A stretch of 64,000 bases of DNA, from contig OZ241363.1 of NCBI GenBank assembly GCA_965200575.1, positions 1,722,398 through 1,786,397 on the forward strand, written 5' to 3'. Position numbers and translations under genes: made by a program. This document shows, piece after piece, positions 6,472-61,246 of the stretch. Every line of letters begins with the position of its first letter. The stretch's first letter is position 1. Under the pieces are notes generated by a model that was given only the letters and a program-made list of their open reading frames with translations, did no database searches and had not been told where the DNA came from. The DNA is from Thermoanaerobaculia bacterium. GTDB taxonomy: Bacteria; Acidobacteriota; Thermoanaerobaculia; Multivoradales; Multivoraceae.

Positions 6472-6610
6472 CGCGCCGCTGCCCGGCGGCCCGGCTCTGC
6501 AGCAGCCCGGTCCGGCATGCCGGCCGAGCGGCCCGGGCCGGACGAAACGCGGTGCGGGGCGCGGGCGGCATCGCCAGGGAGTTGCGGACGGCACGCGGCG
6601 CCGCGACGCC

Positions 6611-22483: not shown

Positions 22484-22493
22484 CGCCCAAGCC

Positions 22494-23387
22494 CTACCTC
22501 GTCTTCATGGCGTGAAAACGGGCGGACAGGTAGCCGTGCAGGGCCGCATCCAGCGGCCTGGAGATGTCGACCAGCGTGTAGTCGATGCCGGCTTCGACCA
22601 GGGAGCGATCGAGCGTGTCCACGTGCGCCTGGATCAGTTTCAGGTACTGATCCCGCAGAACGTCCGACTGCACCGCCTCGCGGGCGCCGGTCTCCAGGTC
22701 GCGCAGGTCCAGTTCGCCATCGAACTCGAAGCGGAGCTCCGCCGGATCCAGAAGGTGAAAGAGGATCACGTCGTTGCCCTTGTGCCTGAAGCCCGCAGCA
22801 GCCTTGATGACCGCCTCGGGTTCCTCATAGAAGTCCGAGATGAGCACCAGCATGCTCCGGCGCCGCACCGAATCGACGAGCTCGAGCAGCGGGTCGCTCA
22901 GCGAACCGGCGCCGCCCGGCTCGATGCGGTCGATCGTGTGCAGCACGACCTGCAGGTGCTTGGCCGCGGGAGGCACAAAGTCCACCACGCCGCTGTCGAA
23001 CGTGACCAGGCCGATGCGGTCCTTCTGCCTGGAGGCGAAGTAGCCCAGGCAGGCCGCCAGGTAGCGCCCGTAGTCGAGCTTGGTCAGGGCCCCGGTGCCG
23101 AAGTCCATCGACCGCGAGACGTCCAGCGCGATGGTCAGGTTCGTGTTCGTGTCGGCCTCGAACTCCTTGACGTAGAAGCGGTCCGTGCGGCAGAACAGCT
23201 TCCAGTCGACGCGCCGGATGTCGTCGCCGGGCTGATACGCGCGATACTCGGCGAAGTCCATCGACCGGCCCAGGAAGGGCGACCGGTGCAGACCGCTGAC
23301 GAAGCCCTCCACCACCGTCTTCGCGAGCAGGTCGAGGCTGCCGATGCGCGCAAGCGTCCGGGTGTCGACGAACCGGCCGTACTCCAT
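22494..23387 (-). CDS. DUF58 domain protein (MoxR-associated, vWA-like)
   Basis: GLHRSPFLGRSMDFAEYRAYQPGDDIRRVDWK...LTIALDVSRSM, the typical DUF58 signature. Confidence 0.85.
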   Translation of the reverse strand: MEYGRFVDTRTLARIGSLDLLAKTVVEGFVSGLHRSPFLGRSMDFAEYRAYQPGDDIRRVDWKLFCRTDRFYVKEFEADTNTNLTIALDVSRSMDFGTGALTKLDYGRYLAACLGYFASRQKDRIGLVTFDSGVVDFVPPAAKHLQVVLHTIDRIEPGGAGSLSDPLLELVDSVRRRSMLVLISDFYEEPEAVIKAAAGFRHKGNDVILFHLLDPAELRFEFDGELDLRDLETGAREAVQSDVLRDQYLKLIQAHVDTLDRSLVEAGIDYTLVDISRPLDAALHGYLSARFHAMKTR

Positions 23388-23399
23388 GACGACCTGCCG

Positions 23400-24470
23400 T
23401 CAGCTCATGCCGCTCGGCGTGACCGGCGCCCGCTCCAGCAGGCGATCGACGATCTCGTCGGTGGTGATGCGCTCGGACTCGGCGTGAAAGTTGGTCAGGA
23501 TGCGATGGCGCATGACCGGCCTGGCCAGCGCCCGCACGTCCTCGTGGGCCACGTGGTAGCGCCCGTCCATGAGCGCCTTCGCCTTGGCGCCCAGGACCAT
23601 GAACTGAGCCGCACGAACGCTGGCGCCGTACTGGACCCACTTGTTGACGAAATCGGGCGCCTCGGGGCTGTCGGGTCGGGTCATCCGCACCAGGTGGACC
23701 GCGTAGCGCAGCACCGGTTCGGCGATCGGCACCCGGCGCACCAGCCGGTGGAACGCCCGCAGGTCCTCGCCGGTGACGCGGGTCTCCATCTCGAACTCGC
23801 GGATGGTCGTGGTGGCATCGACGATCTGCATCTCCTCGTCCTCGGGCAGGTGGTCGATCACGATGTTGAACATGAAGCGGTCGAGCTGGGCCTCCGGAAG
23901 CGGATAGGTCCCCTCCAGCTCGATGGGGTTCTGGGTCGCGAAGACGAAGAACGGCTGCTCCAGGTCGTAGGTACGGCCCTGGACGGTGACCCGATGCTCC
24001 TGCATCGCTTCGAGAAGAGCCGCCTGGGTCTTCGGCGGCGTCCGGTTGATCTCGTCCGCGAGCACGATCTGGGCGAAGATCGGACCGGGCATGAACACCA
24101 TCTCGCGACGCCCGGTGTCGCTGTCCTCCTGGATGATGTCCGTGCCGGTGATGTCGCTCGGCATCAGGTCGGGCGTGAACTGGACGCGGCTGAACTTCAG
24201 ATCGAGCACCTTCGCCACGGTCTGCACGATCAGCGTCTTGGCCAGACCCGGCACGCCGGTGAGGATGCTGTTGCCGCCCACGAACAGGGTCATGAGCACC
24301 TGATCGAGCACCTCTTCCTGGCCGATGATCTGCTTGGCGAGCTGGGCGAGAACCTGCTCGCGACCGGCTTCGAGCCGGCCGGCGAGCTCGATGTCCGTCT
24401 CGCGGACGAGGCCCTCGCCGCCTGCTTCGCCACCGGTCACAAGCTCCACGCGTCCCTCTGTGTCGTTCAT
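23400..24470 (-). CDS. MoxR-family AAA+ ATPase
   Basis: Walker A LTGVPGLAKT, Walker B VLADEINR, and the MoxR-specific C-terminal region. Confidence 0.9.
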   Translation of the reverse strand: MNDTEGRVELVTGGEAGGEGLVRETDIELAGRLEAGREQVLAQLAKQIIGQEEVLDQVLMTLFVGGNSILTGVPGLAKTLIVQTVAKVLDLKFSRVQFTPDLMPSDITGTDIIQEDSDTGRREMVFMPGPIFAQIVLADEINRTPPKTQAALLEAMQEHRVTVQGRTYDLEQPFFVFATQNPIELEGTYPLPEAQLDRFMFNIVIDHLPEDEEMQIVDATTTIREFEMETRVTGEDLRAFHRLVRRVPIAEPVLRYAVHLVRMTRPDSPEAPDFVNKWVQYGASVRAAQFMVLGAKAKALMDGRYHVAHEDVRALARPVMRHRILTNFHAESERITTDEIVDRLLERAPVTPSGMS

Positions 24471-24543
24471 GCGGTTCCCCGTGCTGACTGCTGGATGAGG
24501 CGAACGCCCGATGCTCCGCCGGGCGCCTCGCCGAGCATGCCGA

Positions 24544-25362
24544 TCAATGCGTCATGCCGTAGATCAGGTAGTTGACGCCGAGCTTGAAGCCCTTCTGGGT
24601 CACGTCCACCGGGTAGTGGTTCGTCTCCGACCACTCCCAGAAGTCGCCGACGTCCATGTTGTAGTTGGCGACCGCCATCAGTCGTCGGCTCGGGTCGTTG
24701 TCCTCGAAGATGCCGAAGATCCGCCCTCGGACCGGCCAGAAGCCGGGCTCGTTGATGTCGAAGTTGATGTCCTCGAGCACGAAGAACGACCGGAAGACGG
24801 GGTGGTCCACGGTCAGCGGGACGAGTTCGAAGCCCGGCAGCAGCCGTCCCATCTGCCGCTCGAAGTTCTCCCACTGCACCGGATAGCCGCGCACGTCGAA
24901 GAAGTCGTCGATCACCAGGAAGCCGCCCTTGAGCAGCCAGGAGCGCAGGCTCTCGACCTCCTCCTCGGTCGGGTTCCAGAAGCCCGGCTCGCACAGGTAG
25001 GCCCACGGGTGCTCGAACAATCGCGGGTCGCTCAGCTCGAGGACGTTGCCGCCCCCGGTCTGCACCTCCACGTCCGTGATCTCCTCGACGATGCGGGTGA
25101 AGTTCTGCTCGGCGTACGGATAGTCGTGGTTCCACTTGAGGTCCAGGCCCCACATGAACGGGCCGCCTCCCCAGACGGTGGGCTCGAAACGGATGCGGGC
25201 GAAGGTGAAGCCGCCGGCGTAGGGGAACGACTCCGTCTCGACTCGGGGCGAGGCGCGGCGCCAGGTCTCGTCTCGCGCCCACAGCCCGGCCGCGACCAGC
25301 AGGAGCGCAACCGCTCCAGCCATCGCCGCGACCCGACCCCTCGGGCTACCACCTGTCCTCAC
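24544..25362 (-). CDS. DUF4159 domain protein (paralog A)
   Basis: Signal peptide; FLVIDDFF...GFKLGVNYLIYGMTH C-terminus typical of DUF4159. 4-bp overlap with the upstream gene. Confidence 0.7.
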   Translation of the reverse strand: MRTGGSPRGRVAAMAGAVALLLVAAGLWARDETWRRASPRVETESFPYAGGFTFARIRFEPTVWGGGPFMWGLDLKWNHDYPYAEQNFTRIVEEITDVEVQTGGGNVLELSDPRLFEHPWAYLCEPGFWNPTEEEVESLRSWLLKGGFLVIDDFFDVRGYPVQWENFERQMGRLLPGFELVPLTVDHPVFRSFFVLEDINFDINEPGFWPVRGRIFGIFEDNDPSRRLMAVANYNMDVGDFWEWSETNHYPVDVTQKGFKLGVNYLIYGMTH

Positions 25363-45058: not shown

Positions 45059-48000
45059 TCAACCGCGCAGGAAGGCGAGCAGGTCGGCCATGCCGGCTGG
45101 TTCGAGGCCGGCTTCAAGTTCCTCGGGCATCATCGACAGGCCGTCGCTTCGCAGGCTTCGGATGCGGTCGGCGGGCACTTCGAACACCGTGTCGTCGGGG
45201 CCCTTGAGGACCACGCCGCCACCCGCAAGACGCTCTGCAAGCAGCCCCGCAAACACCTCGCCGTTGACCGTTTCGAGGATGTAGTTCACGAACGCCGTGT
45301 CGACAGCGGCATTCGGGTCGAGGATGTCGTGGAGGAGGGTTTCCGCGCTCCGGCGGCCGATGCCGCCGAGATCGGGTCCCGGACCGCCGCCGTGCTCGCC
45401 GAAGCGGTGGCAGCGGGCACAGAGCTCCAGGAACCGGTCCCGGCCGCGCGTCGGGTCGCCCGGGAGGTCGAGCGCCGGGCGCATCGCCTGAAGCGCGTCG
45501 GGTCGCGACACCACCCCGGCGTCGTCGAACAGGGCCGCCGCCCTTCGCCGCACGTCCGGCTCCGGCGACCGAAGCAGGAAGCGGCGGCGTTCGAGGTCGA
45601 AGTTCATCTCGCCGATGCCGATGCGGCCGTCCTCGAGCGCGTCAAGCAGGACGGCGTGTCGCCCCCGGCCCCGGATCAGCCAGGCGCCGGCGTCCCGCTT
45701 CGCGGTCGGACCAAGTCGCGCCCAGCGGTCGATCAGGAACGCGGCGACCTCGCTTTCGTCCGCCCGGGCGAGCGTCTCCATCGCCGCGGCCTGCACCTCG
45801 TCCGGATGGCGAGCCAGAAGCAGCTCGCCGATTCGCTCCAGCCAGGTCCGGTCGTCAGACAGGGCGGCGGCTTCGACCCCGGCGCCCGGGCACTCCACGA
45901 CCCTCCTCGCCACGTCGGCGCCGCCCGGGTTGCGACCGCCCGTCTGCCACGGCGGCCACAGCGCAAACAGATCGAGCGCGCCGAGCCGCTCTTCCACCGT
46001 CCGAGTCGCGTCCCCGGCCCGGACGCCGGCGCAGTCGAGAAGCGCGAGATCGTCGGCGCCGGCCTCCAGGCCAAGCGCCGAAGCGAGGCGCCAGGCGGCG
46101 ATTGCCAGCCGGTCGTCGCCCGACCTGCGCGCCGGTCCGAGAGACGCTTCGAGCGCGGCCTCGTTTAGTCCGGTGGTTTCAAGCGCGCGACGCTCGCGGC
46201 CGCCGAACGCCGCGGCCAGTCCGGCCATGAGCGCCCGCCGCGACTCGACGGCCTGCCCGCCATCGCCGTCCAGGAAGCGCAGGACGGTCGGGTGCGAAAG
46301 CGCCTCGCCGAGCAGGTCCGCCGGAACGAGCCCCGCGAGCTCCTCGGCGACCGCCGAGCCGTCCCGGCCCTCGGCGGCGCCGGACTCCAGCTGGAGCACG
46401 ACAGAGGACACGGGATCCTCCGCCAGCACAGTGACGGCTGCCAGCCGCGTCCAGCGTGCATCGGGTGCTGCCGGTGCCGAGGGCGTCGCAGTCAGGCCGG
46501 CTTCGGCTTCCCCGGCGGCCCCACCTGACCTCGACTCGCGCGCCAGCAGACCGGCGACCACCGCCGCTGCCGCCTTGCGCTCGAACTCGGGGTCCCGGAT
46601 CACGTCGCGCCGCAGCAGGACGCCGGCGGTGAGCACCGCCTGGAAGCGCACGACCGGTGCGGGATCGTCGATCAGCTGTACCAACGTCTGCCGCAGCGGC
46701 GCGAGATCGGCATCCCCGCCGGAGCTGGCCTTTCCCTCCTCGAAGGCGAGCACCGCGTTCCGACGGAGCTCCGGGTGCGGGTCCCGCATGGCCGCCGCCA
46801 GATCGGCCGGTTCCAGCACGCCGAGGCCGGACAGCGTCCACAGTGCATGCAGGCGCTCCACCGGTTCGCCCGATGCCAGGCGCCCGCGCAGCATCCGCTG
46901 CAGCGCAGGCGGGGGCGCCGAGCCGTGCTCCTCGACCAGCAGTCGCTGCGCCGTGGTTCGGCGCCAGCGGTTCTCGTCTCCCAACGCGTCCACCAAGGCC
47001 TCGGTCCGCGAGCGGTCGAAGCCCGCGAAGGGCGCACGATCGCCGGGCAGGCCCCCGGCTGGCACGATGCGGTAGATGCGCCCGCGCTCGTCGCCCTCGC
47101 GCAGGTCGAGCGCCTCCTCGATCCGATCCGGAATCCACTCCGGATGCTCGATGACGGCCCGGTGCATGTCCAGCACGTACAGCTCGCCATCCGGCCCGAC
47201 GTGCAGGTTCACGGGGCGGAAATGGGGATTGGTCGAGGCGAGAAACTCGACCCCGGGCCGCCCCCGCGCCGCCTCGGCAACGACGCCTCTCGCATCGACC
47301 ATGGCGCGATGCACGACGTTGGCCGACGGGTCGGCCACGAAGACGGCGAAGCGCCCGTCATGCCGCCCGGCAGGCTGCGCGTGAAGCCCGGTCGTCCGCC
47401 CGCCCGTCGCTCTCTCGCTCGTCGATGTGTCGCCGTCCACCTCGCCCTGCTGTTTGGACGAGCCCCGTTCCGGGACGACTTCACCGGCTTCCTCGCCGAG
47501 TTCATGAGGCGCCGAAGGTCCAGGTACCGGCCCGGTCGCGACCCGGATCTCGAAGCCCGCATCCAGCACCCCGCCGTCGTAGATCGTGACCGCGCAGGCC
47601 GCCGAGAAACGGCTCGACTGCTCCGGATGGTTGGGCCGCGTCTGCCGTTCGCCGATGGGGAACAGCTCAGCAGGCCCGCCATCAGGGTGCGGCGCCAGCC
47701 GCTGACGACCGTTCTGCCGGGCGGCGGGAAGCCCCTCCAGGTAGCGCCGAGGCACGACGAGCTGGCTCAGGTGCTCCAGGTTGTGGGTGACGAAGGACCG
47801 TCCCCACGGGCCGAAGGTCATGCCGAAGCCGTCGGCGCCGGGGCCAGTGCGCTCGAACCGTCGCGGTCGACGCGAGCCGCCCGGCACTCCGGCAGAGCCG
47901 GGTGCGCCGGCGCCCCCGAAGCGGATCCGGAAGTCGTCCCGCCCCAGCTCCACCGCCTCCTCCGGCGCGTCGGGCCAGAACAGACGGCCGCCGTTGCCAC

Positions 48001-48523
48001 CGTTCACGCCATGAATCCAGTTGTCCAGGCCGTGGCGCAGGCCGTTCACGTTGTGCTGCGGATTGCCCGCGGCGAAACCGCTCAGCATCACTTCGCGCCG
48101 GTCGGCCCGACCGTCGCCGTCCGTGTCCTCGAGGTAGACGAGGTCGGGAGGGGCAGCCACCAGCAAACCCTCTCGCCAGGGCAGGATCGCGTCCGCCATG
48201 CCGAGGTCGTCGGCGAACGGCCGCCTCGTTTCCCAGCGCCCGTCCCGGTCGCGGTCCAGGAGGGACACGATACGCGCCGGCCGCCCCATGTCCGGATAGC
48301 CCGGCAGCTCCAGGACGTATGCGCGGCCGTGTTCGTCGAACGCCAGGTCGACCGGGTCCACGACCACCGGTTCGGCGGCCGCGAGCGCCATCTCGAATCC
48401 GGGATGGAGCACGAAACCCTCCGGCACGCTGTCCGGAGGCGTCGGTCCGCCACAGCCGCCTGCCAGCGCAACGGTCAGAAGCGCCGCGACAGCAGCATGC
48501 GCCGGCTGGGTCCGTCTCCTCAT
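45059..48523 (-). CDS. PVC-type heme-binding CxxCH protein (membrane-bound dehydrogenase domain + HEAT repeats + cytochrome c domain)
   Basis: 1154 aa, lipoprotein-like signal, LELCARCHRFGEHGG heme c site near the C-terminus. Architecture matches TIGR02603/TIGR02604. Confidence 0.75.
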   Translation of the reverse strand: MRRRTQPAHAAVAALLTVALAGGCGGPTPPDSVPEGFVLHPGFEMALAAAEPVVVDPVDLAFDEHGRAYVLELPGYPDMGRPARIVSLLDRDRDGRWETRRPFADDLGMADAILPWREGLLVAAPPDLVYLEDTDGDGRADRREVMLSGFAAGNPQHNVNGLRHGLDNWIHGVNGGNGGRLFWPDAPEEAVELGRDDFRIRFGGAGAPGSAGVPGGSRRPRRFERTGPGADGFGMTFGPWGRSFVTHNLEHLSQLVVPRRYLEGLPAARQNGRQRLAPHPDGGPAELFPIGERQTRPNHPEQSSRFSAACAVTIYDGGVLDAGFEIRVATGPVPGPSAPHELGEEAGEVVPERGSSKQQGEVDGDTSTSERATGGRTTGLHAQPAGRHDGRFAVFVADPSANVVHRAMVDARGVVAEAARGRPGVEFLASTNPHFRPVNLHVGPDGELYVLDMHRAVIEHPEWIPDRIEEALDLREGDERGRIYRIVPAGGLPGDRAPFAGFDRSRTEALVDALGDENRWRRTTAQRLLVEEHGSAPPPALQRMLRGRLASGEPVERLHALWTLSGLGVLEPADLAAAMRDPHPELRRNAVLAFEEGKASSGGDADLAPLRQTLVQLIDDPAPVVRFQAVLTAGVLLRRDVIRDPEFERKAAAAVVAGLLARESRSGGAAGEAEAGLTATPSAPAAPDARWTRLAAVTVLAEDPVSSVVLQLESGAAEGRDGSAVAEELAGLVPADLLGEALSHPTVLRFLDGDGGQAVESRRALMAGLAAAFGGRERRALETTGLNEAALEASLGPARRSGDDRLAIAAWRLASALGLEAGADDLALLDCAGVRAGDATRTVEERLGALDLFALWPPWQTGGRNPGGADVARRVVECPGAGVEAAALSDDRTWLERIGELLLARHPDEVQAAAMETLARADESEVAAFLIDRWARLGPTAKRDAGAWLIRGRGRHAVLLDALEDGRIGIGEMNFDLERRRFLLRSPEPDVRRRAAALFDDAGVVSRPDALQAMRPALDLPGDPTRGRDRFLELCARCHRFGEHGGGPGPDLGGIGRRSAETLLHDILDPNAAVDTAFVNYILETVNGEVFAGLLAERLAGGGVVLKGPDDTVFEVPADRIRSLRSDGLSMMPEELEAGLEPAGMADLLAFLRG

Positions 48524-48953
48524 CGTTCGTCTCCACCCCATCATGCCCGAAGCATGGACTCGCATGGACGACCGACGACGCCGGACGCTTCGCTCAAGCC
48601 GCGTTGGGCCCGCGCGCTTGTTCGCCTGCAGTCAGCTCGCCAGCTGACCCATCCAGCCGCAGCGACCCGAATCCCGGGTGGTCGCCGGACGGCCAGCGGC
48701 TCGTCTTCACCCCCAGCCGATTCGTCACGCCCGGATACACCTGATGAACCTCAACGGTTGTCGTGTCTGCGCCGAGGCCAGGCCGGCCTCGCGGCGCCTC
48801 ATCCCGGCCAAACCCGAGCCGCCAGCGGCCGTGGCGCCCGCAGGCAAGCTCTCGGCTTCCGCGACTGCTATAGTCCGCCGCTGCCGGCGACCGGCCACGG
48901 CCGAGTCGAACCTCCCCAACTCCGACGACAAGGCATCGAGCCGGAGACAGCAC

Positions 48954-49466
48954 ATGAATCGATCCACTCCCCTGGCCTGCCTGCTCGCGACGGCCATGGC
49001 TTCGGCGCCCGCGGCCGCCGACCTCTCCGTCGGCGACACGGCGCCGGACTTCACCCTGCCCGCGACCGACGGAACCCGGGTCACGCTGTCTTCCTTCGCC
49101 GGGCAGAAGCAGGTAGTGCTCGCCTTCTTCCCGAAGGCCTTCACCGGCGGCTGAACGGCTCAGATGAAGGGATACCAGGCTGGTATCTCAGAGTTCACCG
49201 ACAGCGACTCCATCATCTTCGGCATCAGCGCCGACAAGCTGGAGGACAACAAGAGGTTCGCAGAGGAGCTGGAGCTCGACTTCCTGCTTCTGAGTGACGT
49301 GGACGCCACGGTGATCAACCAGTACGGCGGCACGATGGAGCGGTACGCGGGCATCGCGAAGCGCGTCACCTACGTGGTCGACCTTGACGGCAAGGTCTCG
49401 TATGTCGGCGTGGGCGCCGACGCAATGGACCCGGCCGGCGCCCAGGCCGCCTGTCAGGGCGAGTAG
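48954..49466 (+). CDS. Bcp-type peroxiredoxin, putative selenoprotein (in-frame UGA at the peroxidatic Cys position, codon 67 = 49152-49154)
   Basis: ORFs 48954-49154 and 49164-49466 are in the same frame, separated by a single TGA. The joined sequence ...[13 protein letters not shown][U]TAQMKGY...[26 protein letters not shown] aligns with E. coli Bcp ...VLVYFYPKAMTPG[C]TVQACGL...GISTDKPEKLSRFAEKELLNFTLLSD. Signal peptide present; SECIS-like hairpin downstream. Confidence 0.7.
49155..49195 (+). promoter_or_regulatory. putative bacterial SECIS hairpin
   Basis: The stem gatacc/ggtatc (49171-76/49182-87) with GG-containing apical loop aggct begins 16 nt after the UGA. This is within the spacing expected of bacterial SECIS elements. 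Confidence 0.5.
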
Positions 49467-49696: not shown

Positions 49697-50185
49697 TCAA
49701 GGCTCGCTCGGGGCCACCTTGCCCAGGCCCGCCTGGCGCGCTTCGGCTTCGGTTCGCGGCCTGTAGAGCTCGACGCGGTTGCCGTCGCAGTCGCGCACCC
49801 AGGCGAACTCGGCGTAGCCCTCGTCGTCCCGGCGCAGCGGCTCGATTCCTCGCTCGGCAAGGCGCGCGAGCACGGCATCCATGTCGCGCACGCGGAGATT
49901 CACCATGAACGGCTGGTCGCCGTACATGTCCTCCTGCTTCGAACCATCGTTCGGCGACATTCGCGGAAGCGGACGCTTCGCCTTCATCACCGCGAAGGTG
50001 GTATCGACCACGCGGTCGGGCCCGTCCGGGTCGGCAGCCACGTAGCGGACGTGAAACGCCCCGAACTCCTCGCCGCTCTCGAACTCGACGCCCAGGTGCT
50101 CCGTGTACCAGGCGGCCAGCCGTTTCGGTTCCTCGCTGAAGACGAAGGCGCCGCCGACGCCGTCCACCAGGTTCCCGGCGCTCAC
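49697..50185 (-). CDS. VOC-family (glyoxalase/bleomycin-resistance fold) protein
   Basis: 162 aa with two beta-alpha-beta-beta-beta modules (WYTEHLGVEF...WVRDCDGNRVELY). Confidence 0.7.
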   Translation of the reverse strand: MSAGNLVDGVGGAFVFSEEPKRLAAWYTEHLGVEFESGEEFGAFHVRYVAADPDGPDRVVDTTFAVMKAKRPLPRMSPNDGSKQEDMYGDQPFMVNLRVRDMDAVLARLAERGIEPLRRDDEGYAEFAWVRDCDGNRVELYRPRTEAEARQAGLGKVAPSEP

Positions 50186-51846
50186 GAAGTCTCGCCCGGA
50201 GGCGACGAAGCCATCGTGAAGGTGACCCGCAGGTGCGAGCTGACCGTCTGGCGGCTCACGGGATCATGCACCGACACCACGAGGTCGTGCGGTCTTCGTC
50301 GCAGGGTCAGCGCGGTCTCGTACCGCACCACCTGGCCCGGCGCCGGCTCGGTGCTGCCTGAAAAATCGAGCGGAATCACCGGAATGGAGGCCTGCTGGCC
50401 GTTCCGGTCGACGACCGCGAAGCGGAGCTCCAGGCGGGCCAGGAACTGGTCCTCGAACGGGAACACGGGAAAGTGCCCGACCGGCACGTGCACGACGACC
50501 GGAACTCGCATCTTCCGAATCCCTGCCTTCTCGGGCACGCCCAGTTCCACGCGCAGCACCGGCGTCTGACGCCCGTCGTCAGACCGTCCCAGTTCCGGGA
50601 ACAGGAGCCGACCCTGCGTCTCGAAGTTCGCTTCCGCCCGACGCGACAGGTCCACGTAGCCCGAACGGGACCGGACCTTCATGCCGGGCCGCCACACCTC
50701 GACCCGCACGTCATGGGCGGAATCGTCTCGGCGGTAGTCCGGCACGAAACCGAGCCAGTAGTAGTTCGAAACGTCGTCCGCGACCCGACCGAGTGCACCG
50801 ATGTTCAGTCCAGCCACCAGGGCGCGTCCACCGGTTCTCGCCGCGATCTGCCTCATGTTCTGCCAGCGAAGCAGGCTCGGCCCCTTCTGCTCGTCCACCG
50901 GGTACACGGTGTAGCCCAGCACGTTGGCGGTAGCGACCAGTCCGTCGAGCATCTGCCAGTCGGTGCGCAGGCCGATCCCCTGCCCGGCGAGCCGGAAAGC
51001 GCCGACCGGCCAGTCCCCGGCCAGCAGCAGCAGAACCTTCCGCCCCTGCGGCGCCTGGAGCGCCCGCATCGTCGAACTCACAGCGGTGACGGAAAACTCG
51101 AGATCCCGCGCCAGGCTCTGGGCGCGCGCCTCGGTCAGCGCCCCCGGCAGCTCCATGTTCGGAAGCGCCAGGTCGGCGGCCACCGAGGTGAGGTCCTCGC
51201 CGAACCGCAGCGCAGGCGCGGAACCCCTGTCGTCGGCCTTGTGCCGCTGGTCGAGCAACCGCGGCGATCGGAGCCAGCCCCCGAAGTCCCTGCCCCGTTC
51301 CAGATCCTCCAGCGCCGTCCGCACCTGCTCGCGGTCGGTGGTGAACGGGCTGAGCACCTGGAGCCGACGGCGACTCTGGACCACCACCGCCACTTCGTCC
51401 CGGATGCCCAGGTCGGCGAGCTGCCGTACGAGGCCGCGCAGCACCGGCCGCCTGAAGGTCACGTGGGTGTGATCGTCGTCCACGAACAGCAGGTAGTGCG
51501 TGGGCACCGAGTCGCCGTCGCCGATCGCCGGAGGGGCGCCGCCCTCGGGCGCCTCGACCGCCCGGTTCTCCAGGATCTCCGTGAAGTAGTCCACCTCCAC
51601 CTCGGCCCCGTCCACGATCAGGCGAAAGTCCTCGGTGCGCAGTCCCTGCACCCGCTCGCCCGACCGGTCCTCGACCACGACCTCCAGGTTGACCACCCGG
51701 ACATCGATCTCCTCACCGAAGAACAGATCCGGAGGCAGCTCGCCGGACTCCTGCGCGCCCAGCCATCCAGCCCCGCAGAGCCCGAGCAGGACCGTGACAA
51801 CCGGCAGCAACGCCCCTCGCACGCTCGTCCTGACGAAACCGGTCAC
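50182..51846 (-). CDS. VWA domain-containing protein, acidobacterial-type VWFA-related (TIGR03436-like)
   Basis: 554 aa, signal peptide, YLLFVDDDHTH vWA-like core. ATGA overlap with the downstream VOC gene. Confidence 0.65.
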   Translation of the reverse strand: MTGFVRTSVRGALLPVVTVLLGLCGAGWLGAQESGELPPDLFFGEEIDVRVVNLEVVVEDRSGERVQGLRTEDFRLIVDGAEVEVDYFTEILENRAVEAPEGGAPPAIGDGDSVPTHYLLFVDDDHTHVTFRRPVLRGLVRQLADLGIRDEVAVVVQSRRRLQVLSPFTTDREQVRTALEDLERGRDFGGWLRSPRLLDQRHKADDRGSAPALRFGEDLTSVAADLALPNMELPGALTEARAQSLARDLEFSVTAVSSTMRALQAPQGRKVLLLLAGDWPVGAFRLAGQGIGLRTDWQMLDGLVATANVLGYTVYPVDEQKGPSLLRWQNMRQIAARTGGRALVAGLNIGALGRVADDVSNYYWLGFVPDYRRDDSAHDVRVEVWRPGMKVRSRSGYVDLSRRAEANFETQGRLLFPELGRSDDGRQTPVLRVELGVPEKAGIRKMRVPVVVHVPVGHFPVFPFEDQFLARLELRFAVVDRNGQQASIPVIPLDFSGSTEPAPGQVVRYETALTLRRRPHDLVVSVHDPVSRQTVSSHLRVTFTMASSPPGETS

Positions 51847-53989: not shown

Positions 53990-55546
53990 ATGAACGGCGC
54001 ACAGTCACTGCTTCGTACCGCGGCCTCGGCCGGCGTGGAGATCTGCTTCGCCAACCCGGGCACGTCCGAGATGCACCTGGTGGCGGCGCTGGACGAGATC
54101 CCCGGTGTCCGCAGCGTCCTCGCCCAGTTCGAGGGCGTGGCGACCGGCGCCGCGGACGGCTACGCCCGGATGGCCGGCAAGCCCGCGCTGACCCTCGTCC
54201 ACCTCGGCCCCGGCTTCGCGAACGGGATCGCCAACCTGCACAACGCCCGTCGGGCGCGTTCGCCGGTGATCAACGTGATCGGGCACCACCCGACCTGGCA
54301 CCGCAACTACGATCCGCCGCTCAACAGCGACGTGGAGAGCCTGGCGCGAGGCGTGTCCGACTGGCAGCGCACCGCCGGCTCGGCGCAGCACCTGTCGCGG
54401 GACATGGCCGAAGCCATCTCGGCTGCGCGCCGCCACCCCGGCCAGATCGCGACGCTCGTCGTGCCCACCGACTGCCAGTGGGACGAGGCCTTCGGCCCGA
54501 TCGTCGCCCCGCCTCCGGTGCCCGGCGCGCGGGTCGACGACGACGCCGTCGAGCGAGCACGCGAAGCAGTGCTGCGCGGCAAGCGCACGATGCTGCTGCT
54601 CGGCGGTTCCGCGCTCCAGGAAACGGGCCAGCGATCAGCCGCCGCCACAAGCGCCGCGACCGGTTGCCGGTTGAACGCCGAGACCTTCCCGACCCGCATG
54701 GAGCGCGGACCCCACCTGCCGCCCCTCGTCCGCGTGCCCTACTTCCCCGAACAGGCCGCCGAGTTCTTCGCCGGCCTCGACACGGTCGTCCTCGCCGGGG
54801 CGCTCGACCCGGTCGCCTTCTTCGGCTACCAGGGCGGACCGAGCCGGCTGGTTCCGGACGATGTGGATGTCGTCGTCCTGAGCCACCCGACGGAGCACGC
54901 CAGTGCCGCCCTCGGAGACCTGGCCTCCGCACTCGGCGCGACCGAGGCGCCGCCGGCGCGGAACGTCCAACGGCCGCCGGCGCCGGACGGACCCATCGGC
55001 GCCCGTGTGGCCGCCCAGGCGGTCGCCGCGACCCTGCCGGAGCATGCGATCGTCGTGGACGAGGGCATCACGGTCGGCGGCGGCTGCTATCCCGCGACGG
55101 CCGGCGCCCCCGCGCACAGCTGGCTGCTGCAGAACGGCGGCGCAATCGGCATGGGCCTGCCTGCCGCCCTTGGCGCCGCCATCGCCTGCCCGGACCGCAA
55201 GGTCCTGAACCTCGAGGGAGACGGCAGCGGCCTGTACACCATCCAGGCGCTGTGGAGCCAGGTGCGCGAAAGCGCCGACGTGGTGAACCTCGTCTTCGCC
55301 AACGACGCCTACCGCATTCTCCAGGTCGAGCTGCGCAGGGCCGGCGTCGAGGAGTTCGGCCCTCAGGCGATCAACCTGACCGACCTCACGGGCCCCCGCG
55401 TGGAGTGGCTCGACCTCGCCCGAGGCTTCGGCATGCCGGCAGTCCAGGTGCAGACCGGCGAGGAGCTCACCGCCGCGCTGGCCCGAGGCTTCGCCGAGCC
55501 CGGCCCGTACCTGATCGAGGCGCTGGTGCAGGACGCGCCCGGCTAG
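53990..55546 (+). CDS. thiamine-pyrophosphate-dependent enzyme, acetolactate synthase large-subunit-like
   Basis: N-terminal TPP-Pyr domain (AGVEICFANPGTSEMHLVAAL), C-terminal TPP-binding GDG...N motif (NLEGDGSGLYTIQALWS). Confidence 0.8.
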   Translation: MNGAQSLLRTAASAGVEICFANPGTSEMHLVAALDEIPGVRSVLAQFEGVATGAADGYARMAGKPALTLVHLGPGFANGIANLHNARRARSPVINVIGHHPTWHRNYDPPLNSDVESLARGVSDWQRTAGSAQHLSRDMAEAISAARRHPGQIATLVVPTDCQWDEAFGPIVAPPPVPGARVDDDAVERAREAVLRGKRTMLLLGGSALQETGQRSAAATSAATGCRLNAETFPTRMERGPHLPPLVRVPYFPEQAAEFFAGLDTVVLAGALDPVAFFGYQGGPSRLVPDDVDVVVLSHPTEHASAALGDLASALGATEAPPARNVQRPPAPDGPIGARVAAQAVAATLPEHAIVVDEGITVGGGCYPATAGAPAHSWLLQNGGAIGMGLPAALGAAIACPDRKVLNLEGDGSGLYTIQALWSQVRESADVVNLVFANDAYRILQVELRRAGVEEFGPQAINLTDLTGPRVEWLDLARGFGMPAVQVQTGEELTAALARGFAEPGPYLIEALVQDAPG

Positions 55547-55688
55547 CGCTGCCGGCGGCTCGCCGATTCATGTTCGCAAGGCGCAACCGGCCTCGGCTGC
55601 GGCCCGGCAACCTTGCCAGTGCCGCCGGCGAGCCCTTCACAGCCCGCTGCCTGCCGGAACCCGGCGCCAACCCGAGAAACGGATCGCC

Positions 55689-56726
55689 TTGAAGTACTCC
55701 GTCACGCTGCTGCCCGGCGACGGCATCGGCCCCGAGGTCGCCAAGGCGATGGTCCGTGCCGTCGACTTCGTCACCGGCGGCCGTATCGAGTGGGAGCCCG
55801 TGGTGGCGGGCAGCACCGCCGTGGATCAGGGGCTCTCGCCGCTGCCCGACGAGGCCATCGACTCCATCAGGCGCAACAGGATCGCGATCAAGGGGCCGCT
55901 GCAGACCCCGGTGGGAGGCGGCTGGCGCAGCGTGAACGTCCTGCTCCGCCAGTCCCTGGAGCTGTTCGCGTGCGTCCGGCCGGTCCGCTCCATGCCCGGC
56001 GCCACCCTTGCCCGCTACCAGGACGTCGACCAGATCATCATCCGAGAGAACACCGAGGGCCTGTACAGCGGCCGCGAGCACGAGGTGGTCGACGGCGTGG
56101 TCGAGGCGCTCCGCATCGTCACCCGCGATGCATCCCGGCGCATCATGCAGTTCGCGTTCGAGTACGCCCGCAGCCACGGACGCAAGAAGCTGACCATCGT
56201 CCACAAGGCGTCCATCACGCCCCTGTCGGACAACCTGTTCCTGGACTGCGCCCGCGAGTGCGCGCAGAGCTACCCGTTCTTCGAGGTGGACTACCTGCCG
56301 CTCGACAACCTGGCCCTGGAACTGGCCACGGACCCATCCCGCTTCGACATGCTGGTCATGGGCAACCTGGACGGCGACCTGATCAGCGACCTCTGCGCCG
56401 GTCTGGTCGGCGGCCTGGGCGTCGTTCCGGGGGCCAACTACGGCCACGGATGCGCCGTCTTCGAGGCCGTTCACGGCACCGCGCCCGACATCGCCGGCCG
56501 CGACCTGGCCAACCCGCTCGCCCTCATCCTGTCGGCCGAGCTGATGCTCCGCTACGTTGGCGAAGCGGCAGCTGCCGACCACCTGCGAGCCGGCGTCGAG
56601 CGGCTGCTGGTGAACGGCACAAGCCTCACCCGCGACCTCGGCGGCAGCGCCAACACGTCCGAACTCACCGACGCCCTGCTGGTCGAGCTCGATGTGGTCG
56701 CCGACGAGCGGGAGAGCGCCCGGTGA
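55689..56726 (+). CDS. isocitrate/isopropylmalate dehydrogenase family protein (paralog 1)
   Basis: LLPGDGIGPEV...IRENTEGLYSG...NLDGDLISDLCAGLVGGLG. TTG start. Confidence 0.85.
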   Translation: MKYSVTLLPGDGIGPEVAKAMVRAVDFVTGGRIEWEPVVAGSTAVDQGLSPLPDEAIDSIRRNRIAIKGPLQTPVGGGWRSVNVLLRQSLELFACVRPVRSMPGATLARYQDVDQIIIRENTEGLYSGREHEVVDGVVEALRIVTRDASRRIMQFAFEYARSHGRKKLTIVHKASITPLSDNLFLDCARECAQSYPFFEVDYLPLDNLALELATDPSRFDMLVMGNLDGDLISDLCAGLVGGLGVVPGANYGHGCAVFEAVHGTAPDIAGRDLANPLALILSAELMLRYVGEAAAADHLRAGVERLLVNGTSLTRDLGGSANTSELTDALLVELDVVADERESAR

Positions 56727-57778
56727 CGCGCCCGCGGCCGAGGGTCGCCCTGATCGTCGGCGCGATCGGCGTCGGCGCCGAGACCGCACCTCCGGTCCTC
56801 CAGATCCTCGAATCGGCGGGCGCCGACCTCGACTTCGTCCGCGTGGACGTGCCGACTGCCGTGCGGCGCGACACACAAGCCGTGCTCCGCGAGGCCGTGG
56901 ACCTGGTCACGGACTGCAAGGTGGCGCTGAAGACGCGCCTGATCGGGCCCGACCGCGACGCCGTGCGAGTCGGGCCCGGGCCGCGCAACCCGAACGTGGC
57001 GCTCCGCCAGATGCTCGGCCTCTGGGCCAGCGTGCGGCCCGTGCGCACCCTGCCGGGTTTGCGCACCCGCTACGAAGACCTCGACGTGCTCCTCATCCGG
57101 GAGATCACGGAGAGCGTGTACCGGGGCATCGAGCACGAGATCGTCGACGGCGTGGTGGAGAGCATGAAGGTGGTCAGCCGGGCGGCCTGCCTCCGCATCG
57201 CCGACTACGCCTTCCGCACGGCCAGACGTCACGGACGGAAGAAGGTCACTGCCATCCACAAGGCGAACATCATGAAACAGACCGACGGCCTGTTTCTCGA
57301 CACCTTCCGCGCCGTCGCCGCCGAGCATCGCGACATCGAAGCCGACGACTGCATCGTGGACGCCGCCTGCATGCGCCTGGTGCTGAATCCCTGGGGCTTC
57401 GACGTGATGCTGATGGACAACCTCTACGGCGACATTCTCAGCAACCTCGGCGCCGGCCTCGCCGGCGGCATCTCGACCGGCCACGCGATCAATGTCGGCG
57501 ACGACTGCCACGTGTTCGAGGCGGTCCACGGCGACGCCCCGCACCTGATCGGCACCGGCCAGGCGAACCTGCTGCCGCTCCTGACCCCGGCCCTCGCCCT
57601 GCTCCGCCACTTCGACCTGTACGACGAGGCGGACCGCATAGACCAGGCCGTCACCGCAGTGCTCGAAGAGCGCCTGGCCCTGACCCCCGACCTCGGAGGC
57701 AACGCCTCCACGTGGCAGATGGCCCGAGCAATCATCGCCGCCATCGAGCAACCGGGCCTGTCGCGACCGAGGACCTGA
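56723..57778 (+). CDS. isocitrate/isopropylmalate dehydrogenase family protein (paralog 2), translationally coupled
   Basis: GTG start overlapping the upstream stop (GTGA). IREITESVYRG...NLYGDILSNLGAGLAGGIS. Confidence 0.8.
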   Translation: MTRPRPRVALIVGAIGVGAETAPPVLQILESAGADLDFVRVDVPTAVRRDTQAVLREAVDLVTDCKVALKTRLIGPDRDAVRVGPGPRNPNVALRQMLGLWASVRPVRTLPGLRTRYEDLDVLLIREITESVYRGIEHEIVDGVVESMKVVSRAACLRIADYAFRTARRHGRKKVTAIHKANIMKQTDGLFLDTFRAVAAEHRDIEADDCIVDAACMRLVLNPWGFDVMLMDNLYGDILSNLGAGLAGGISTGHAINVGDDCHVFEAVHGDAPHLIGTGQANLLPLLTPALALLRHFDLYDEADRIDQAVTAVLEERLALTPDLGGNASTWQMARAIIAAIEQPGLSRPRT

Positions 57779-57789
57779 CCGGCGGCTAC

Positions 57790-58486
57790 CGGATCCGGCG
57801 CAGCTTCCCGCGCCCGGGATCGTGCATGTCCACGGCCCCCAAGGCGCCTCCTGAACGAGCGTCCGAATCTCGGGCCAGGCGATCAGCAGCGCGCACAGCA
57901 TGCCGAGACGATCGGCATTCCGCTCGACCAGAACGAGAAGGCAGGCATCCGACGAGTGAACGGCCGCGAGTTCGGACCGGCGGCGCCGGATGCCACGGCC
58001 CCTGGTCACCAGCACATGACCTTCCGCGGCCTGCTCGCGAATCCATGTCTCGTCCGGAACCAGCCGTTGCGGCGGATGGACCTTGTCGTGCGCACGGGCC
58101 CTGACTCCCACCGTGCATGGCGCCCTCGGGACGGCCTTGCCAACCGTGCGGTCGAGGAAGAACGTTGCACCCGCAGCCGTGCCGCTCTTCGTCGCCACGG
58201 TTCGCACTCTGCCTGATTCCGGGCAAGCCCGGGGCCCTGGCACGCCGTACCGCCGGCAGGTCGCCAGGAACCGGGCCTCGACCAGGTTGAAGAAGTTGAG
58301 CGGCGGGGCGCCGGCATGATCCCGGTCCGGTCCAGGGATGGCCCCGGGCCTCCGGGTCTGCCGCGGAACCAGGCCCGCAACGTCCCGGTCGGCACGCCGA
58401 CCACGAGTCCGCAAGGCTGTAGCGCGGCTGCTGTCCGAAGCATGGCAGTGCTCCGGTTCATTCTTCGGGCAGCCGAGCCCGGCCAA
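57790..58486 (-). pseudogene. possible decayed gene / insertion-element remnant (no intact ORF)
   Basis: ~1 kb without a clean ORF in a genome that otherwise codes at >90%. The minus frame gives protein-like fragments (NFFNLVEARFLATCRRYGVPG, RLVPDETWIREQAAEGHVLVTRG, ELAAVHSSDACLLVLVERNADRLGMLCALLIAWPEIRTL) of unrecognised family. Confidence 0.2.
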
Positions 58487-58783
58487 CTTCTGAAGGGCGA
58501 AGCCCAGCGTGGCAGGCTGTCGGCCTTGCCGGAGGACGAATCAAGCTGACCGGGCCCGCAACCTGGCGAAAGCAGGGGAATAGGGGCGAGCGCAACGTTC
58601 GCGAAGCGACCGCGCCGTGGTGCGTGACGCGGTGAAGTACGGGCGGCCTTCTCCCGGCCCCCAGATTCTGCATGGCGGCGTTCTGGCGTCGCCAACAGGC
58701 TGCCGCACTCTTGCGTCGCTGCACGGACCGGGCCGAGACACGGTGCAAGATGGCGCGTCAGCCCGGCCCTGGCCCGGCTTCTC

Positions 58784-61246
58784 TCAGCCCTGTTGGTCGG
58801 TGCGCAACTCCGCGAGCAGCTGCACGAGGGTGGCTCGGACGGTCTCGATCTCGGCTTCGGTGAGGTAGGGATCGAGCAGGTCGAGGGCTTCCAGGACAGG
58901 CTCCGCTTCCACTGAATCGACGAGTGCCCGGAGCGACCGGATCTGACGCTCGCCGAGACGGATGAGGGCGGGGCGGATCTCGTCGAGCGTCAGGTCGGGC
59001 GCAGCGGTCGCCGGGGTCCGACGCTGCACTGCCTTGGCGAGCTCGATCTGGAGGGCGAACCAGGCTCGCACCGGCACCGGATTCAGGCCGAAATGGACCG
59101 CGTTCCGCTCCGCGGCCTCCAGCACGACTTCCTCTCGCGCCGGGTCGGCCACCGGCAGGCCGCGTGCCGCCTTGAACGCCGCGACAAACGGCATGAAGGC
59201 CAGACGGCGAGCGGTCAGGTCGAGCAGGTGGTCGAGTTCGCCACGGTCGCTGCCGACGCCGAACCACTCCTCGCGGCGGGCCTTGATCCAGCGCTCGTTG
59301 CGCCGGACCCACTGGTCCACCAGCGGACCCAGGTCATCTGCCTTGCCCGGCGCGATCCAGAGTGTCTTGCGGTCCAGCGGCGGCTCGCAAGCGCTCCGCC
59401 AGCCGGGGCGTCCGAAGTGCTCGACCTCGAACGAGTCCGTGACGAAGGCGTCGACCTCGCCGCGCTCGAGCCGACCGGGAAGCGACAGATTGTCGTCCAC
59501 GGCGAGAATCTCGCTTTCGCCACCGCCCAGGCGTTCCCTCGTCCAGCGCTCCAGGATGCCGCCCCGGTTCACGGCCACACGGCCCGGCGGCGCCGGCGCG
59601 TCGGCTGCGGACACCACGCACGGCCCGCCCGCCGCCACGGCACGGCTCATCCAGCCGACCACCGCACGGCTCGCCCGCCAGGTCACGCCGCTCATCGCCA
59701 GGTCGAAGTCGTCCGAAGCCACCGCCTCGGCCAGATCGGGCCAGTCGAACGGCCGGAACTCGAGATCGTAACCGAGGTCGGCGGCCAGTCGCTCCGCAAC
59801 CTCGATGTCGAAGCCGCTGCGCCGCCCCTCCACGCTCTCGGCAGCTGGCACGTCCACGTGACGCTGCCCGACCTCGGAATCGGCGGCATCTCGACGGTCA
59901 TCCGCGGTCGCAGAAGCCGCGCCGGCCCGGGACGCGCTGTCGTCCGTTGGCGAAACGACCGAGAACGGCGGATAGTCGCCGCTGGTGCCCACCCGAAGCA
60001 CCGGCCTTGTCGGCGGGCCGACAGGCGCCGCGGCCGCGGCCCTGTCGAGCTCGGCGGTCGTGAAGCGCACGGCGGCCACCCATGGCGCCTCGCCGGCCGT
60101 GAAGTGGCCGTAGGTCGTGGTCACGAACGTCCCGTCGGGCAGGAGCTCCAGACCGGGGTAGGCGGTGTCCGCGGCGTAGCGGTTATCCATCAGGCGGATG
60201 CGGACCTCGCCCGCCTGCGGCGCGCGCTCGCCCCGCTGCAGGTCCTCGTAGCGGCCAAGCCAGCCGACCCAGTCGCCGTACCAGGGGCTCTCCGGCGCAC
60301 GGTCGCGGAAGGTGACGAAGAGCCGCCCGTCCGGCGCGTACCGTGCGACGTGCCGGTCGCCTGTGAGCGACTCGGGGAGCTCGACCGGGCGGCTCCAGGT
60401 GCGTCCCTCGTCCCGCGAGAAGACAACGAAGGAGCGGAAGCGACGGCTGTTCTCGCGCAGCAGGACGGCGATCTCGGTGCCGTCCGGCGAACGGACGAGG
60501 CCCGGTTCGCACAGGTGGGCTTCGGGGTGTGCCGCGATGACCTCCGGCTCGGACCAGGTGAGCCCGTCGTCGAGCGAGATCGTCTTGTAGACCCGGAATC
60601 TTGACTCAAGGCCCGGCGACTGCTCGCCGCGCCCCGTCGCCCGGTGCAGGTAGCGCCCGTCGTCGTGAAACAGCGCCATCAGCTCGGCGTCCACGCTGCG
60701 CAGCCGTTCGACGGAGGACATCGCGACGATGCCGCCGAAGTGACCGATGGGTTCGAGCTCGGTCCAGGTGCTCCCGTCGTCGTCGGAGTGCGCCATCCGC
60801 ACCGGGTACATGCCAGAGAACAGCAGCAGGCGCCGGCCGCCGCCCGGCAGGTCGACCGGGAAGACGGTCGGCGTCTCCATCGACGTCGCCCAGGAGGCCG
60901 GGGTCGGCAGCCGCTCGCTCCACGTGAGACCGCCGTCGTGGCTGCGCTTCATCACGATGGCGCCGGCGCCGTGGCCCTTCGGGTACACCGCCAGGATGGA
61001 GCGTTCGTCTGGCAGCAGAACAGTCGTCGGATGGCCCAGGTACTGCCCCGGTTCGCGGTCGACGACGACCTGGCGATGCGTCTGGGCGGCCCAGTCGATC
61101 CAGCGGAGGCTCGAACCATCGCCGCCGCCGCAGCCGAGCGCCGCCACCAGCAGGAAGAGCACCGGGGCCGGCAGCAGCGAGAGCCGACCCAGCGCCGGCT
61201 GCGACGCGACGCCCCTGCCGAACCGCAGTCGCCCGAAAGCCATCAC
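58784..61246 (-). CDS. tri-domain lipoprotein: BNR/Asp-box sialidase-like repeats + PheC-like periplasmic solute-binding (cyclohexadienyl dehydratase-like) domain + AroQ chorismate mutase
   Basis: 820 aa; lipobox LVAALGCGG. Four Asp-box motifs ([36 protein letters not shown]). Middle [14 protein letters not shown]...[15 protein letters not shown]...FDLAMSGVT is SBP family 3 / PheC-like. C-terminal [37 protein letters not shown]...[13 protein letters not shown] is AroQ-like. Confidence 0.65.

Follow-up and report, generated by a model that had tools for sequence, protein, structure and literature searches.

When two genes for related dehydrogenases overlap on a chromosome, do they encode two independent enzymes or the subunits of a single one? 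This question is raised by a stretch of 64,000 nucleotides (hereafter the window) of contig OZ241363.1 from a Thermoanaerobaculia bacterium, in which a gene for a thiamine pyrophosphate (TPP)-dependent enzyme is followed by two paralogous genes of the isocitrate/isopropylmalate dehydrogenase family, whose products we call A and B. A preliminary description of this locus had proposed a heteromer like the eukaryotic isocitrate dehydrogenase that depends on NAD (NAD-IDH), and the residue pattern found here fits that proposal: A is complete, B is degenerate and would nonetheless donate a Lys and an Asp to its partner, and the pair is conserved. We consider it probable that A and B are the catalytic and the degenerate subunit, respectively, of a heteromeric NAD-IDH; the physical heteromer, the NAD-IDH activity, the inactive site of B and any regulatory role are what we infer from the sequences.

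The arrangement of a TPP gene and two overlapping dehydrogenase paralogs was reproduced, with all three open reading frames (ORFs) found again at their coordinates and the GTGA overlap read in the sequence. At the junction (ccGGTGAcg, 56720-56726), the TGA stop of A and the GTG start of B share 4 nt. The G+C content of the window is ~70%, and third-codon-position GC gives clean frame calls; because this signal (0.89-0.97) switches frame exactly at the A/B junction, the reading frames of both genes are supported. The start context of A, TTG-AAG-TAC, is also kept in relatives. The Pfam Iso_dh profile (PF00180) matches A with 302 bits (E = 7.6e-90) and B with 222 bits (E = 2.3e-65), both passing the cut-off of 27 bits and covering the profile end to end, and the two proteins are 42% identical over 299 residues.

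To which enzyme of the family do A and B correspond? The best NCBIfam models for A are PRK08997 (375 bits; cut-off 510) and TIGR00175 mito_nad_idh (363 bits; cut-off 432), and the same two are the top-scoring models for B (291 and 309 bits, respectively). The scores of A with other family models are 290 bits for AksF2 (cut-off 540), 307 for LEU3_arch (410), 198 for TTC (470) and 180 for leuB (353). Models of homoisocitrate dehydrogenase (HICDH), isopropylmalate dehydrogenase (IPMDH) and tartrate dehydrogenase (TDH) all score under the isocitrate dehydrogenase (IDH) models for A, and the order is the same for B. In a search of the Protein Data Bank (PDB), furthermore, the best match of both proteins was human IDH3 alpha (327 bits for A and 237 bits for B), and both scored lower against human gamma, human beta and yeast IDH1. 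Judged by profiles and structures, A and B belong to the mitochondrial-type NAD-IDH subfamily, and neither of them groups with LeuB, Icd, HICDH or TDH. An identity as LeuB or as an E. coli-type Icd was rejected for either paralog, the nearest profiles and structures being those of NAD-IDH, and HICDH, IPMDH and TDH were ruled out for both by profile scores and residues. Homoisocitrate, tartrate or a methylmalate-like compound, which had been suggested as possible substrates, did not find support, since A keeps all nine isocitrate-binding residues and the Asp of NAD specificity and the IDH profiles outscore the others. Asn84 of human alpha is kept in both A and B and Ser82 in A, at positions that we take to be of the IDH type rather than the HICDH or IPMDH type. 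Both residues are listed among the isocitrate/NAD contacts of the human enzyme (PMC5241874, PMC5816668).

In this family, the active site is built from residues of one subunit together with a Lys and an Asp from its partner, and we took the functional residues from the structures solved for human alpha-gamma and alpha-beta (PMC5241874, PMC5816668, PMC6827300). Positions are given below in the numbering of human alpha, unless a residue is assigned to the window. The A clade, for which the residue statistics cover eight pair loci, retains at 100% the isocitrate contacts Thr74, Ser82, Asn84, Arg88, Arg98, Arg119, Tyr126 and Asp230, the metal-binding Asp230 and Asp234, the donated Lys173 and Asp206, and the NAD contacts including Asp268 and the GDGIGPE loop. 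The respective residues of A in the window are T73, S81, N83, R87, R97, R119, Y126, K173, D206, D230, D234, E259, H262, T264, D267 and N275, and a 16-position A signature is present in nearly all of the 120 A-search matches listed.

The B clade (n = 86) also keeps the partner-donated positions Lys173, Asp206 and Asn175 at 100%, as it does Tyr126, Arg88, Arg119 and Asn84, and Asp230 is found in 97%. Asp234, which is invariant (100%) in A and in single-gene relatives (singletons), is instead Asn in 62% and Ser in 36% of the B clade and Asp in only 1%; human beta, human gamma and yeast IDH1 also have Asn at this position. Among the isocitrate contacts, Ser82 is replaced with Asn in 91% and Thr74 with Gly or Ala in 74% (Thr in 11%), and Arg98 is kept in 77%. 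The nucleotide pocket is changed as well: Thr265 is Asp or Glu in 91%, Asp13 of the GDGIGPE loop is replaced in all and Pro17 in ~96%, and Asp268 is His in 76%, among them three of the four pairs that branch earliest (L210, L215 and L216; L-numbers denote contig loci read around A or B homologs, and P-numbers single homologous proteins). B in the window follows this pattern with G75 (for T74), N89 (S82), N241 (D234), D271 (T265) and H274 (D268) and with GAIGVGAE in place of GDGIGPE (loop VGAIGVGAE), and it retains the partner-donated K180 and D213 as well as N182, Y133, R95, R126 and D237. The active-site motif ascribed earlier to both paralogs is thus literally present in each (GNLDGDLISD in A and DNLYGDILSN in B), but its last residue corresponds to the second metal-binding Asp (D234 of human IDH3 alpha) and is Asn241 in B, whose motif is not intact in that respect.

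Table 1. Features of the TPP gene/A/B locus (positions in the window; residue equivalents in human IDH3 alpha numbering).
Feature	Position	Strand	Description
TPP-dependent enzyme gene, lineage-specific operon neighbour	53990-55546	+	518 aa, ATG start, Pfam TPP_enzyme_N + TPP_enzyme_C
Intergenic spacer between TPP gene and A	55547-55688	+	142 nt
Subunit A, predicted catalytic subunit of NAD-dependent isocitrate dehydrogenase	55689-56726	+	345 aa, TTG start, Pfam Iso_dh
A Ser175 (alpha N175)	56211-56213	+	substitution of the whole A clade; lines the predicted partner pocket
A Asp228 (alpha Y228)	56370-56372	+	substitution of the core A clade; N-terminus of interface helix alpha7
GTGA start/stop overlap of A and B	56723-56726	+	4 nt, seen in the sequence
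Subunit B, predicted to be a partner without catalysis (structural or regulatory)	56723-57778	+	351 aa, GTG start, Pfam Iso_dh
B Asn241 (alpha D234)	57443-57445	+	second metal-binding Asp lost
B Asp271...His274	57533-57544	+	remodelled nucleotide loop; NAD 2'-OH-binding Asp (alpha D268) lost

From these residues, A and B would pair as a heterodimer that forms the basic unit and perhaps assembles further. The pocket of A would be a complete site for isocitrate, Mg2+ and NAD+, finished by Lys180 and Asp213 of B. In its own pocket, B has lost a metal ligand and two contacts to isocitrate, together with the Asp that binds the NAD 2'-OH and the loop of the adenine pocket, and because of these losses B is predicted to be non-catalytic. 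This second pocket would be completed by Lys173, Asp206 and Ser175 of A and may play a structural or effector-binding role. The 4-nt overlap would, in addition, ensure coupled translation of A and B in a fixed proportion.

The pocket of B is nonetheless conserved; its Arg cluster and adenine contacts (H269 and N282 of B in the window) are kept, and residues 263-265 differ from those of the gamma/IDH1 type. Conserved B-specific substitutions cluster in the beta3-alpha3 and beta12-alpha8 loops, plus a site at 243/244 (GGLG to GGIS), and the two loops form the cofactor pocket (PMC6827300). Because the substitutions are concentrated in pocket loops, the pocket of B appears to have been remodelled and maintained rather than simply decayed. 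Such a conserved, non-decaying pocket could also belong to an A-B heterodimer with two catalytic sites, that of B working with another cofactor or metal geometry or on a related substrate, and B in the window does retain Y133, K180, D213, D237, R95, R105, R126, N91, E266, H269 and N282. In early-branching B proteins, furthermore, both metal-binding Asp residues are kept, and some have Arg/His at positions 265/268, a combination that might suit a phosphorylated cofactor. In the core B clade, to which B of the window belongs, however, the second metal-binding Asp is Asn or Ser in 98%, Ser82 is Asn in 91% and the GDGIGPE loop is lost, while the acidic residue at position 265 is unfavourable for NADP; the same Asp-to-Asn loss in eukaryotic subunits accompanies a non-catalytic role (PMC5241874). 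Two catalytic sites in one heterodimer are, on balance, improbable. In the early-branching pairs L210, L215 and L216, B has both metal-binding Asp residues and a part of GDGIGPE but already His at position 268, which suggests a stepwise degeneration of B starting in the nucleotide pocket.

Partner-facing changes are found in A as well. Asn175 to Ser is the sole substitution specific to the whole A clade; Ser is found in 90% of non-redundant A-clade sequences, whereas position 175 is Asn in 100% of B-clade sequences and in 100% of singletons. In human IDH3, Asn175 of alpha touches the ligand of the gamma allosteric site (PMC5816668). Position 228, furthermore, is Asp in 106 of the 120 A-search matches listed, 99 of which also have Ser175, and is Tyr in B (100%) and in 96% of singletons; Tyr228 is a member of the communication triad K142-D181-Y228 of human IDH3 (PMC5241874). 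The A-specific N175S and Y228D changes thus map to partner-pocket and interface positions.

These changes bear upon another explanation, namely that one operon encodes two independent homo-oligomers: A2 as an ordinary NAD-IDH and B2 as a neofunctionalised dehydrogenase or a binding protein. The hetero-oligomeric type of NAD-IDH is described as eukaryotic and mitochondrial and prokaryotic IDHs as homodimers, the characterised prokaryotic members of the family all being homo-oligomers (PMC8333347, PMC6827300); full-text literature searches for phrases on a bacterial IDH that is heterodimeric, heteromeric or hetero-oligomeric gave no relevant match. Also, A is complete by itself, and partners in an operon are not required to form a complex. 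A B2 dimer, nevertheless, would have two pockets, each without the metal ligand, Ser82, Thr74 and the NAD Asp, and B keeps at 100% exactly those residues that matter only when donated to a partner site. Besides the clade-specific changes of A at partner-facing positions, clade membership corresponds to pairing in 15 of 15 loci, with the 4-nt overlap, and A and B are co-inherited with correlated divergence. Two separate homo-oligomers are considered unlikely, and we prefer the heteromer of A and B.

The conservation of the pair, which the preliminary description had put forward as a check, was confirmed across phyla. A followed by B was the order at each of the 15 distinct loci that were read around an A- or B-clade gene (L001-8, L010-13, L118 and L210-216), and the 4-nt overlap (ATGA or GTGA) was seen wherever the junction was read; in L011 the start picker had chosen a later start codon, and the overlap was not confirmed in that pair. 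The pair is present in four named Thermoanaerobaculia genomes (L010-L013), in the Acidobacteriota loci L004 and L005/6 (59-61% identity in B) and in the Acidimicrobiia loci L007/8 (51% identity in B), and L009 represents a single-gene relative at a like identity without a partner gene. Distant A-like proteins (P0240, P0211, P0209 and P0238) each sit in a pair, and so does the nearest outgroup of B, P0085, which is the downstream gene of its pair. There is also an indirect sign of co-location in that 25 of 82 B-cluster representatives and a listed A representative have longest contigs of identical size. According to their source names, A-clade proteins come from Acidobacteriota, Acidimicrobiia, Gemmatimonadales and Myxococcota, all as metagenome-assembled genomes (MAGs), and near-identical proteins come from MAGs of Thermoanaerobaculia/Holophagales, including 'Ca. 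Multivorans' and Multivoraceae. The A gene of L005 (5129-6004) was called as 291 aa, with the N-terminal GDGIGPE region missing from the extraction, and the near-identical gene of L006 (4961-6004) has the full 347 aa; the short form is likely due to a frameshift or an assembly error.

Single genes, by comparison, were frequent among relatives outside the two clades. A scan of genome contigs with the B-clade alignment gave at least 4 pairs and at least 76 singleton loci, which serve as a control set and not as a species census; the scan motifs HKANIMK and DLLLIRENTE are also present in ordinary NAD-IDHs. A metagenome scan by 'IVDAACM...P' gave 120 loci, namely one pair (L118) and 119 singletons, and this motif is not specific to B, as the singletons have it too. 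Among the matches listed, ~190 related single-gene NAD-IDH loci have no adjacent paralog; the singletons are 47-56% identical with A and 39-53% with B.

Did the bacterial pair arise together with the eukaryotic subunits? We constructed neighbour-joining (NJ) trees from 331-332 columns with Kimura distances and 100 bootstraps, including the human IDH3 subunits alpha, beta and gamma and the yeast subunits IDH1 and IDH2 as eukaryotic references, whose sequences match PDB chains; an IPMDH sequence of T. thermophilus was used for rooting only. The A clade was supported with a bootstrap value of 100% and the B clade with 92%, or 100% with P0085. The two clades are not sisters, and each arises among single-gene bacterial NAD-IDHs, whose radiation is poorly resolved. 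In the eukaryotes, the regulatory subunits (100%) and the catalytic ones (92-97%) form one clade (86-88%) without A and B, and because they group together in this way, the duplication in bacteria apparently took place independently of that in eukaryotes, as far as NJ and the unresolved deep nodes allow. That B is orthologous to the eukaryotic regulatory subunits was ruled out by this topology together with the higher PDB score of B to alpha than to gamma and beta. Furthermore, the distance matrices of A and B correlate with r = 0.91 (13 pairs), and in each of the 78 comparisons B shows the greater divergence, by ~1.4-fold; by these distances, A and B have travelled together, with B as the faster-evolving gene. 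In the same trees, a single-gene NAD-IDH from an uncultured Verrucomicrobiae MAG (L028, ~5974-6963) joins human alpha and yeast IDH2 with an NJ bootstrap of 87%. This gene could be closely related to that of the mitochondrial enzyme, could have been transferred, or could owe its place to an artefact of the tree.

The A-B pair would work in the manner of yeast IDH2/IDH1 or of mitochondrial IDH3, in which alpha is joined with beta or gamma, but would stem from a separate duplication within bacteria; its design would be like that of IDH3 or IDH1/IDH2 but not descended from their regulatory subunits. Human IDH3 is in the same subfamily, and A equals alpha at every isocitrate, metal and NAD residue. 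B resembles human beta and gamma in that the D234 ligand is missing (as is R98 in 23% of the clade) and the donated Lys and Asp are kept. B differs from them in keeping D230 and the HG(x)AP loop, both of which are lost in beta and gamma, whereas GDGIGPE, T74, S82 and D268, (partly) retained in beta and gamma, are lost from B. B also has no gamma-type citrate/ADP residues and a separate origin. Unlike those of human IDH3, moreover, the genes of A and B are adjacent and translationally coupled. Yeast NAD-IDH (PDB 3BLV), with IDH1 as the regulatory and IDH2 as the catalytic subunit, has the same design of two paralogs with one catalytic and one non-catalytic pocket. Yeast IDH1 is also without both metal-binding Asp residues and R98. 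IDH1, however, binds citrate and AMP, of which there is no sign for B, and the two fall in separate clades. Single-gene bacterial NAD-IDHs of the PRK08997 type (e.g., Shewanella morhuae L084) share with A the full set of catalytic residues, the GDGIGPE loop and the NAD Asp. They differ from A in having N175 and mostly Y228 instead of Ser and Asp, in standing outside the A and B clades, and in lacking an adjoining paralog.

Several observations weigh against a division of A and B into a catalytic and a degenerate subunit of NAD-IDH. Both proteins fall under the trusted cut-offs of the NAD-IDH equivalog models TIGR00175 and PRK08997. A has all that would be needed to work as an A2 homodimer, and in B most of the Arg cluster is retained, as are the catalytic Tyr133, Lys180 and Asp237. 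B of the early-branching L210, L215 and L216 keeps both metal-binding Asp residues, and some B sites may, for this reason, still turn over substrate. Finally, positions 263-265 of alpha are HGD in B and not RNT or RHV, and because the citrate/ADP-site residues of the gamma/IDH1 type are not carried, nothing specific speaks for a regulatory role of B.

How, then, does the TPP gene relate to the pair? The TPP protein matches the NCBIfam model PRK07586 over its full length with 712 bits (cut-off 363), but this model is uncharacterised and named 'acetolactate synthase large subunit' by homology. The protein fails the models of characterised acetolactate synthases, with 110 bits against a cut-off of 538 for the biosynthetic TIGR00118 and 85 against 551 for the catabolic AlsS (TIGR02418), and Pfam TPP_enzyme_M, the middle domain, had no match in it. 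The label of an acetolactate synthase-like enzyme, by which the gene had been introduced, hence stands for the by-homology model and not for the characterised enzymes. The nearest solved structures are benzoylformate decarboxylases at ~110 bits, with TPP_enzyme_N and TPP_enzyme_C in common between these, PRK07586 and the TPP protein.

The linkage of the TPP gene to the pair varies. In L010, the TPP stop overlaps the TTG start of A as TTGA (4901-4904), and the gap between the two genes is 5-24 nt in L011-L013, so that the TPP gene, A and B look like one operon in these four genomes; the Pfam scan of the two ORFs upstream of the L010 TPP gene had no match. In L005/L006, a thioesterase gene on the opposite strand lies between the TPP gene and the pair, and in L004 the TPP gene is 6 kb away. 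No such TPP gene was found at the pairs read in L007, L118, L210, L212, L214, L215 and L216. In the window, the spacer contains no promoter-like sites and a single weak terminator-like hairpin (55553-55565) that is within chance expectation; it has no Rfam match, its fold z-score is -0.63, and it is absent from relatives. By comparison with L010, the three-gene translational coupling predicted there is broken in the window by a 142-nt insertion. Because the linkage varies and the gene is absent from pairs in other lineages, the TPP gene is best described as a lineage-specific neighbour tied to one acidobacterial class and outside the conserved system. The module of the TPP gene and the dehydrogenases that had been envisaged is not supported as an obligatory unit, the tight linkage being confined to the closest relatives, with the gene displaced in other Thermoanaerobaculia and missing at the pairs read in further lineages.

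It might still be supposed that the TPP enzyme and both dehydrogenases act on a 2-oxo/hydroxy-acid other than isocitrate (homoisocitrate, tartrate or methylmalate) or, in a variant of this idea, that the TPP enzyme decarboxylates the 2-oxoglutarate of the pair. The coupling to A in L010, the gaps of 5-24 nt in L011-L013, the position of the TPP gene within 0.3-6 kb of the pair in other Thermoanaerobaculia and, in the unrelated lineage of L210, a different TPP-dependent 2-oxoacid dehydrogenase E1 after the pair would all be in line with it. The substrate and cofactor residues of A are, however, those of NAD-IDH, and IDH profiles beat those of HICDH, TDH and IPMDH; six pairs (L007, L118, L212, L214, L215 and L216) have no adjoining TPP gene, the 142-nt spacer breaks the TPP-A coupling in the window, and benzoylformate decarboxylase, as the nearest structure, reaches only ~110 bits. 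We regard this explanation as very unlikely and retain a heteromeric NAD-IDH with the TPP gene outside of it. An action of the TPP enzyme on 2-oxoglutarate, the IDH product, is by itself conceivable, and as a weaker possibility, the TPP enzyme of Thermoanaerobaculia would decarboxylate this product and make the three genes a short operon for a bypass of the tricarboxylic acid (TCA) cycle. As to other neighbours, a fused E1 alpha/beta component of a 2-oxoacid dehydrogenase follows the pair in L210/L211 (L210, 7168-9201), and an ATP-dependent phosphoenolpyruvate (PEP) carboxykinase follows it in L214 (7236-8822); the E1 of L210 and the PEP carboxykinase of L214 would fit a context of central carbon metabolism.

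The genes neighbouring the locus in the window are ordinary chromosomal ones, such as those for DnaE, ComEC, a MoxR-DUF58-BatA operon, an amidase and a PVC-type haem protein. The ~1 kb after B (57779-58783) has no convincing gene and a weak frame signal; its ORFs had no Pfam match, and neither a tandem repeat nor a homolog in relatives was found there. Contigs L001 and L002, from the same population, have an identical copy of this region, but no DNA match to it was found in the sister genomes L010-L013, in which the next gene begins ~0-350 nt after B and, in L013, overlaps the end of B. Beyond it lies, on the minus strand (58784-61246), a gene for an unusual 820-aa fusion of BNR/sialidase-like repeats, SBP_bac_3 and a type II (AroQ-gamma-like) chorismate mutase, which also adjoins the pair in L010, L011 and L013. 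The fusion resembles a periplasmic chorismate mutase combined with a cyclohexadienyl dehydratase. Upstream, a 103-aa ORF (49155-49466, plus strand) covers only the C-terminal two-thirds (positions 42-123 of 124) of the AhpC/TSA peroxiredoxin profile and is possibly a truncated gene or one with a mis-set start. The minus strand further encodes a 1168-aa PVC-type haem-binding CxxCH protein with DUF7133, HEAT repeats and cytochrome c (45059-48565), an acidobacterial-type VWA-domain protein (50182-51846) divergent from the amidase gene, and, at 20282-24551, a cluster of a MoxR AAA ATPase, DUF58 and BatA/VWA proteins, which is like an aerotolerance operon and is followed by a 1241-aa DUF4175-like protein.

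A heteromer of A and B, if true, would represent a second, independent origin of the NAD-IDH design with one catalytic and one degenerate subunit, and this in bacteria. It would also provide an operon-encoded system in which to study how a homodimeric enzyme turns into an obligate heteromer with a pseudo-enzyme subunit. In public databases, these proteins are labelled generically as 'isocitrate/isopropylmalate dehydrogenase family protein' or counted as two copies of IDH, and such labels would mislead the metabolic reconstruction of MAGs of Acidobacteriota, Acidimicrobiia, Myxococcota and Gemmatimonadota. More tentatively, at least two and probably four phyla may have evolved an IDH3-like obligate heteromer independently of the eukaryotic one, with the remodelled pocket of the pseudo-enzyme paralog as an allosteric effector site; we see this wider proposal as possible, though doubtful. 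If it is true, the series from early-branching pairs, in which the pocket of B is near-intact, to core pairs, in which it is degenerate, would record a stepwise route from a homodimer to a catalytic/regulatory heteromer, and pairs of the L210, L215 and L216 type would be natural intermediates for its reconstruction.

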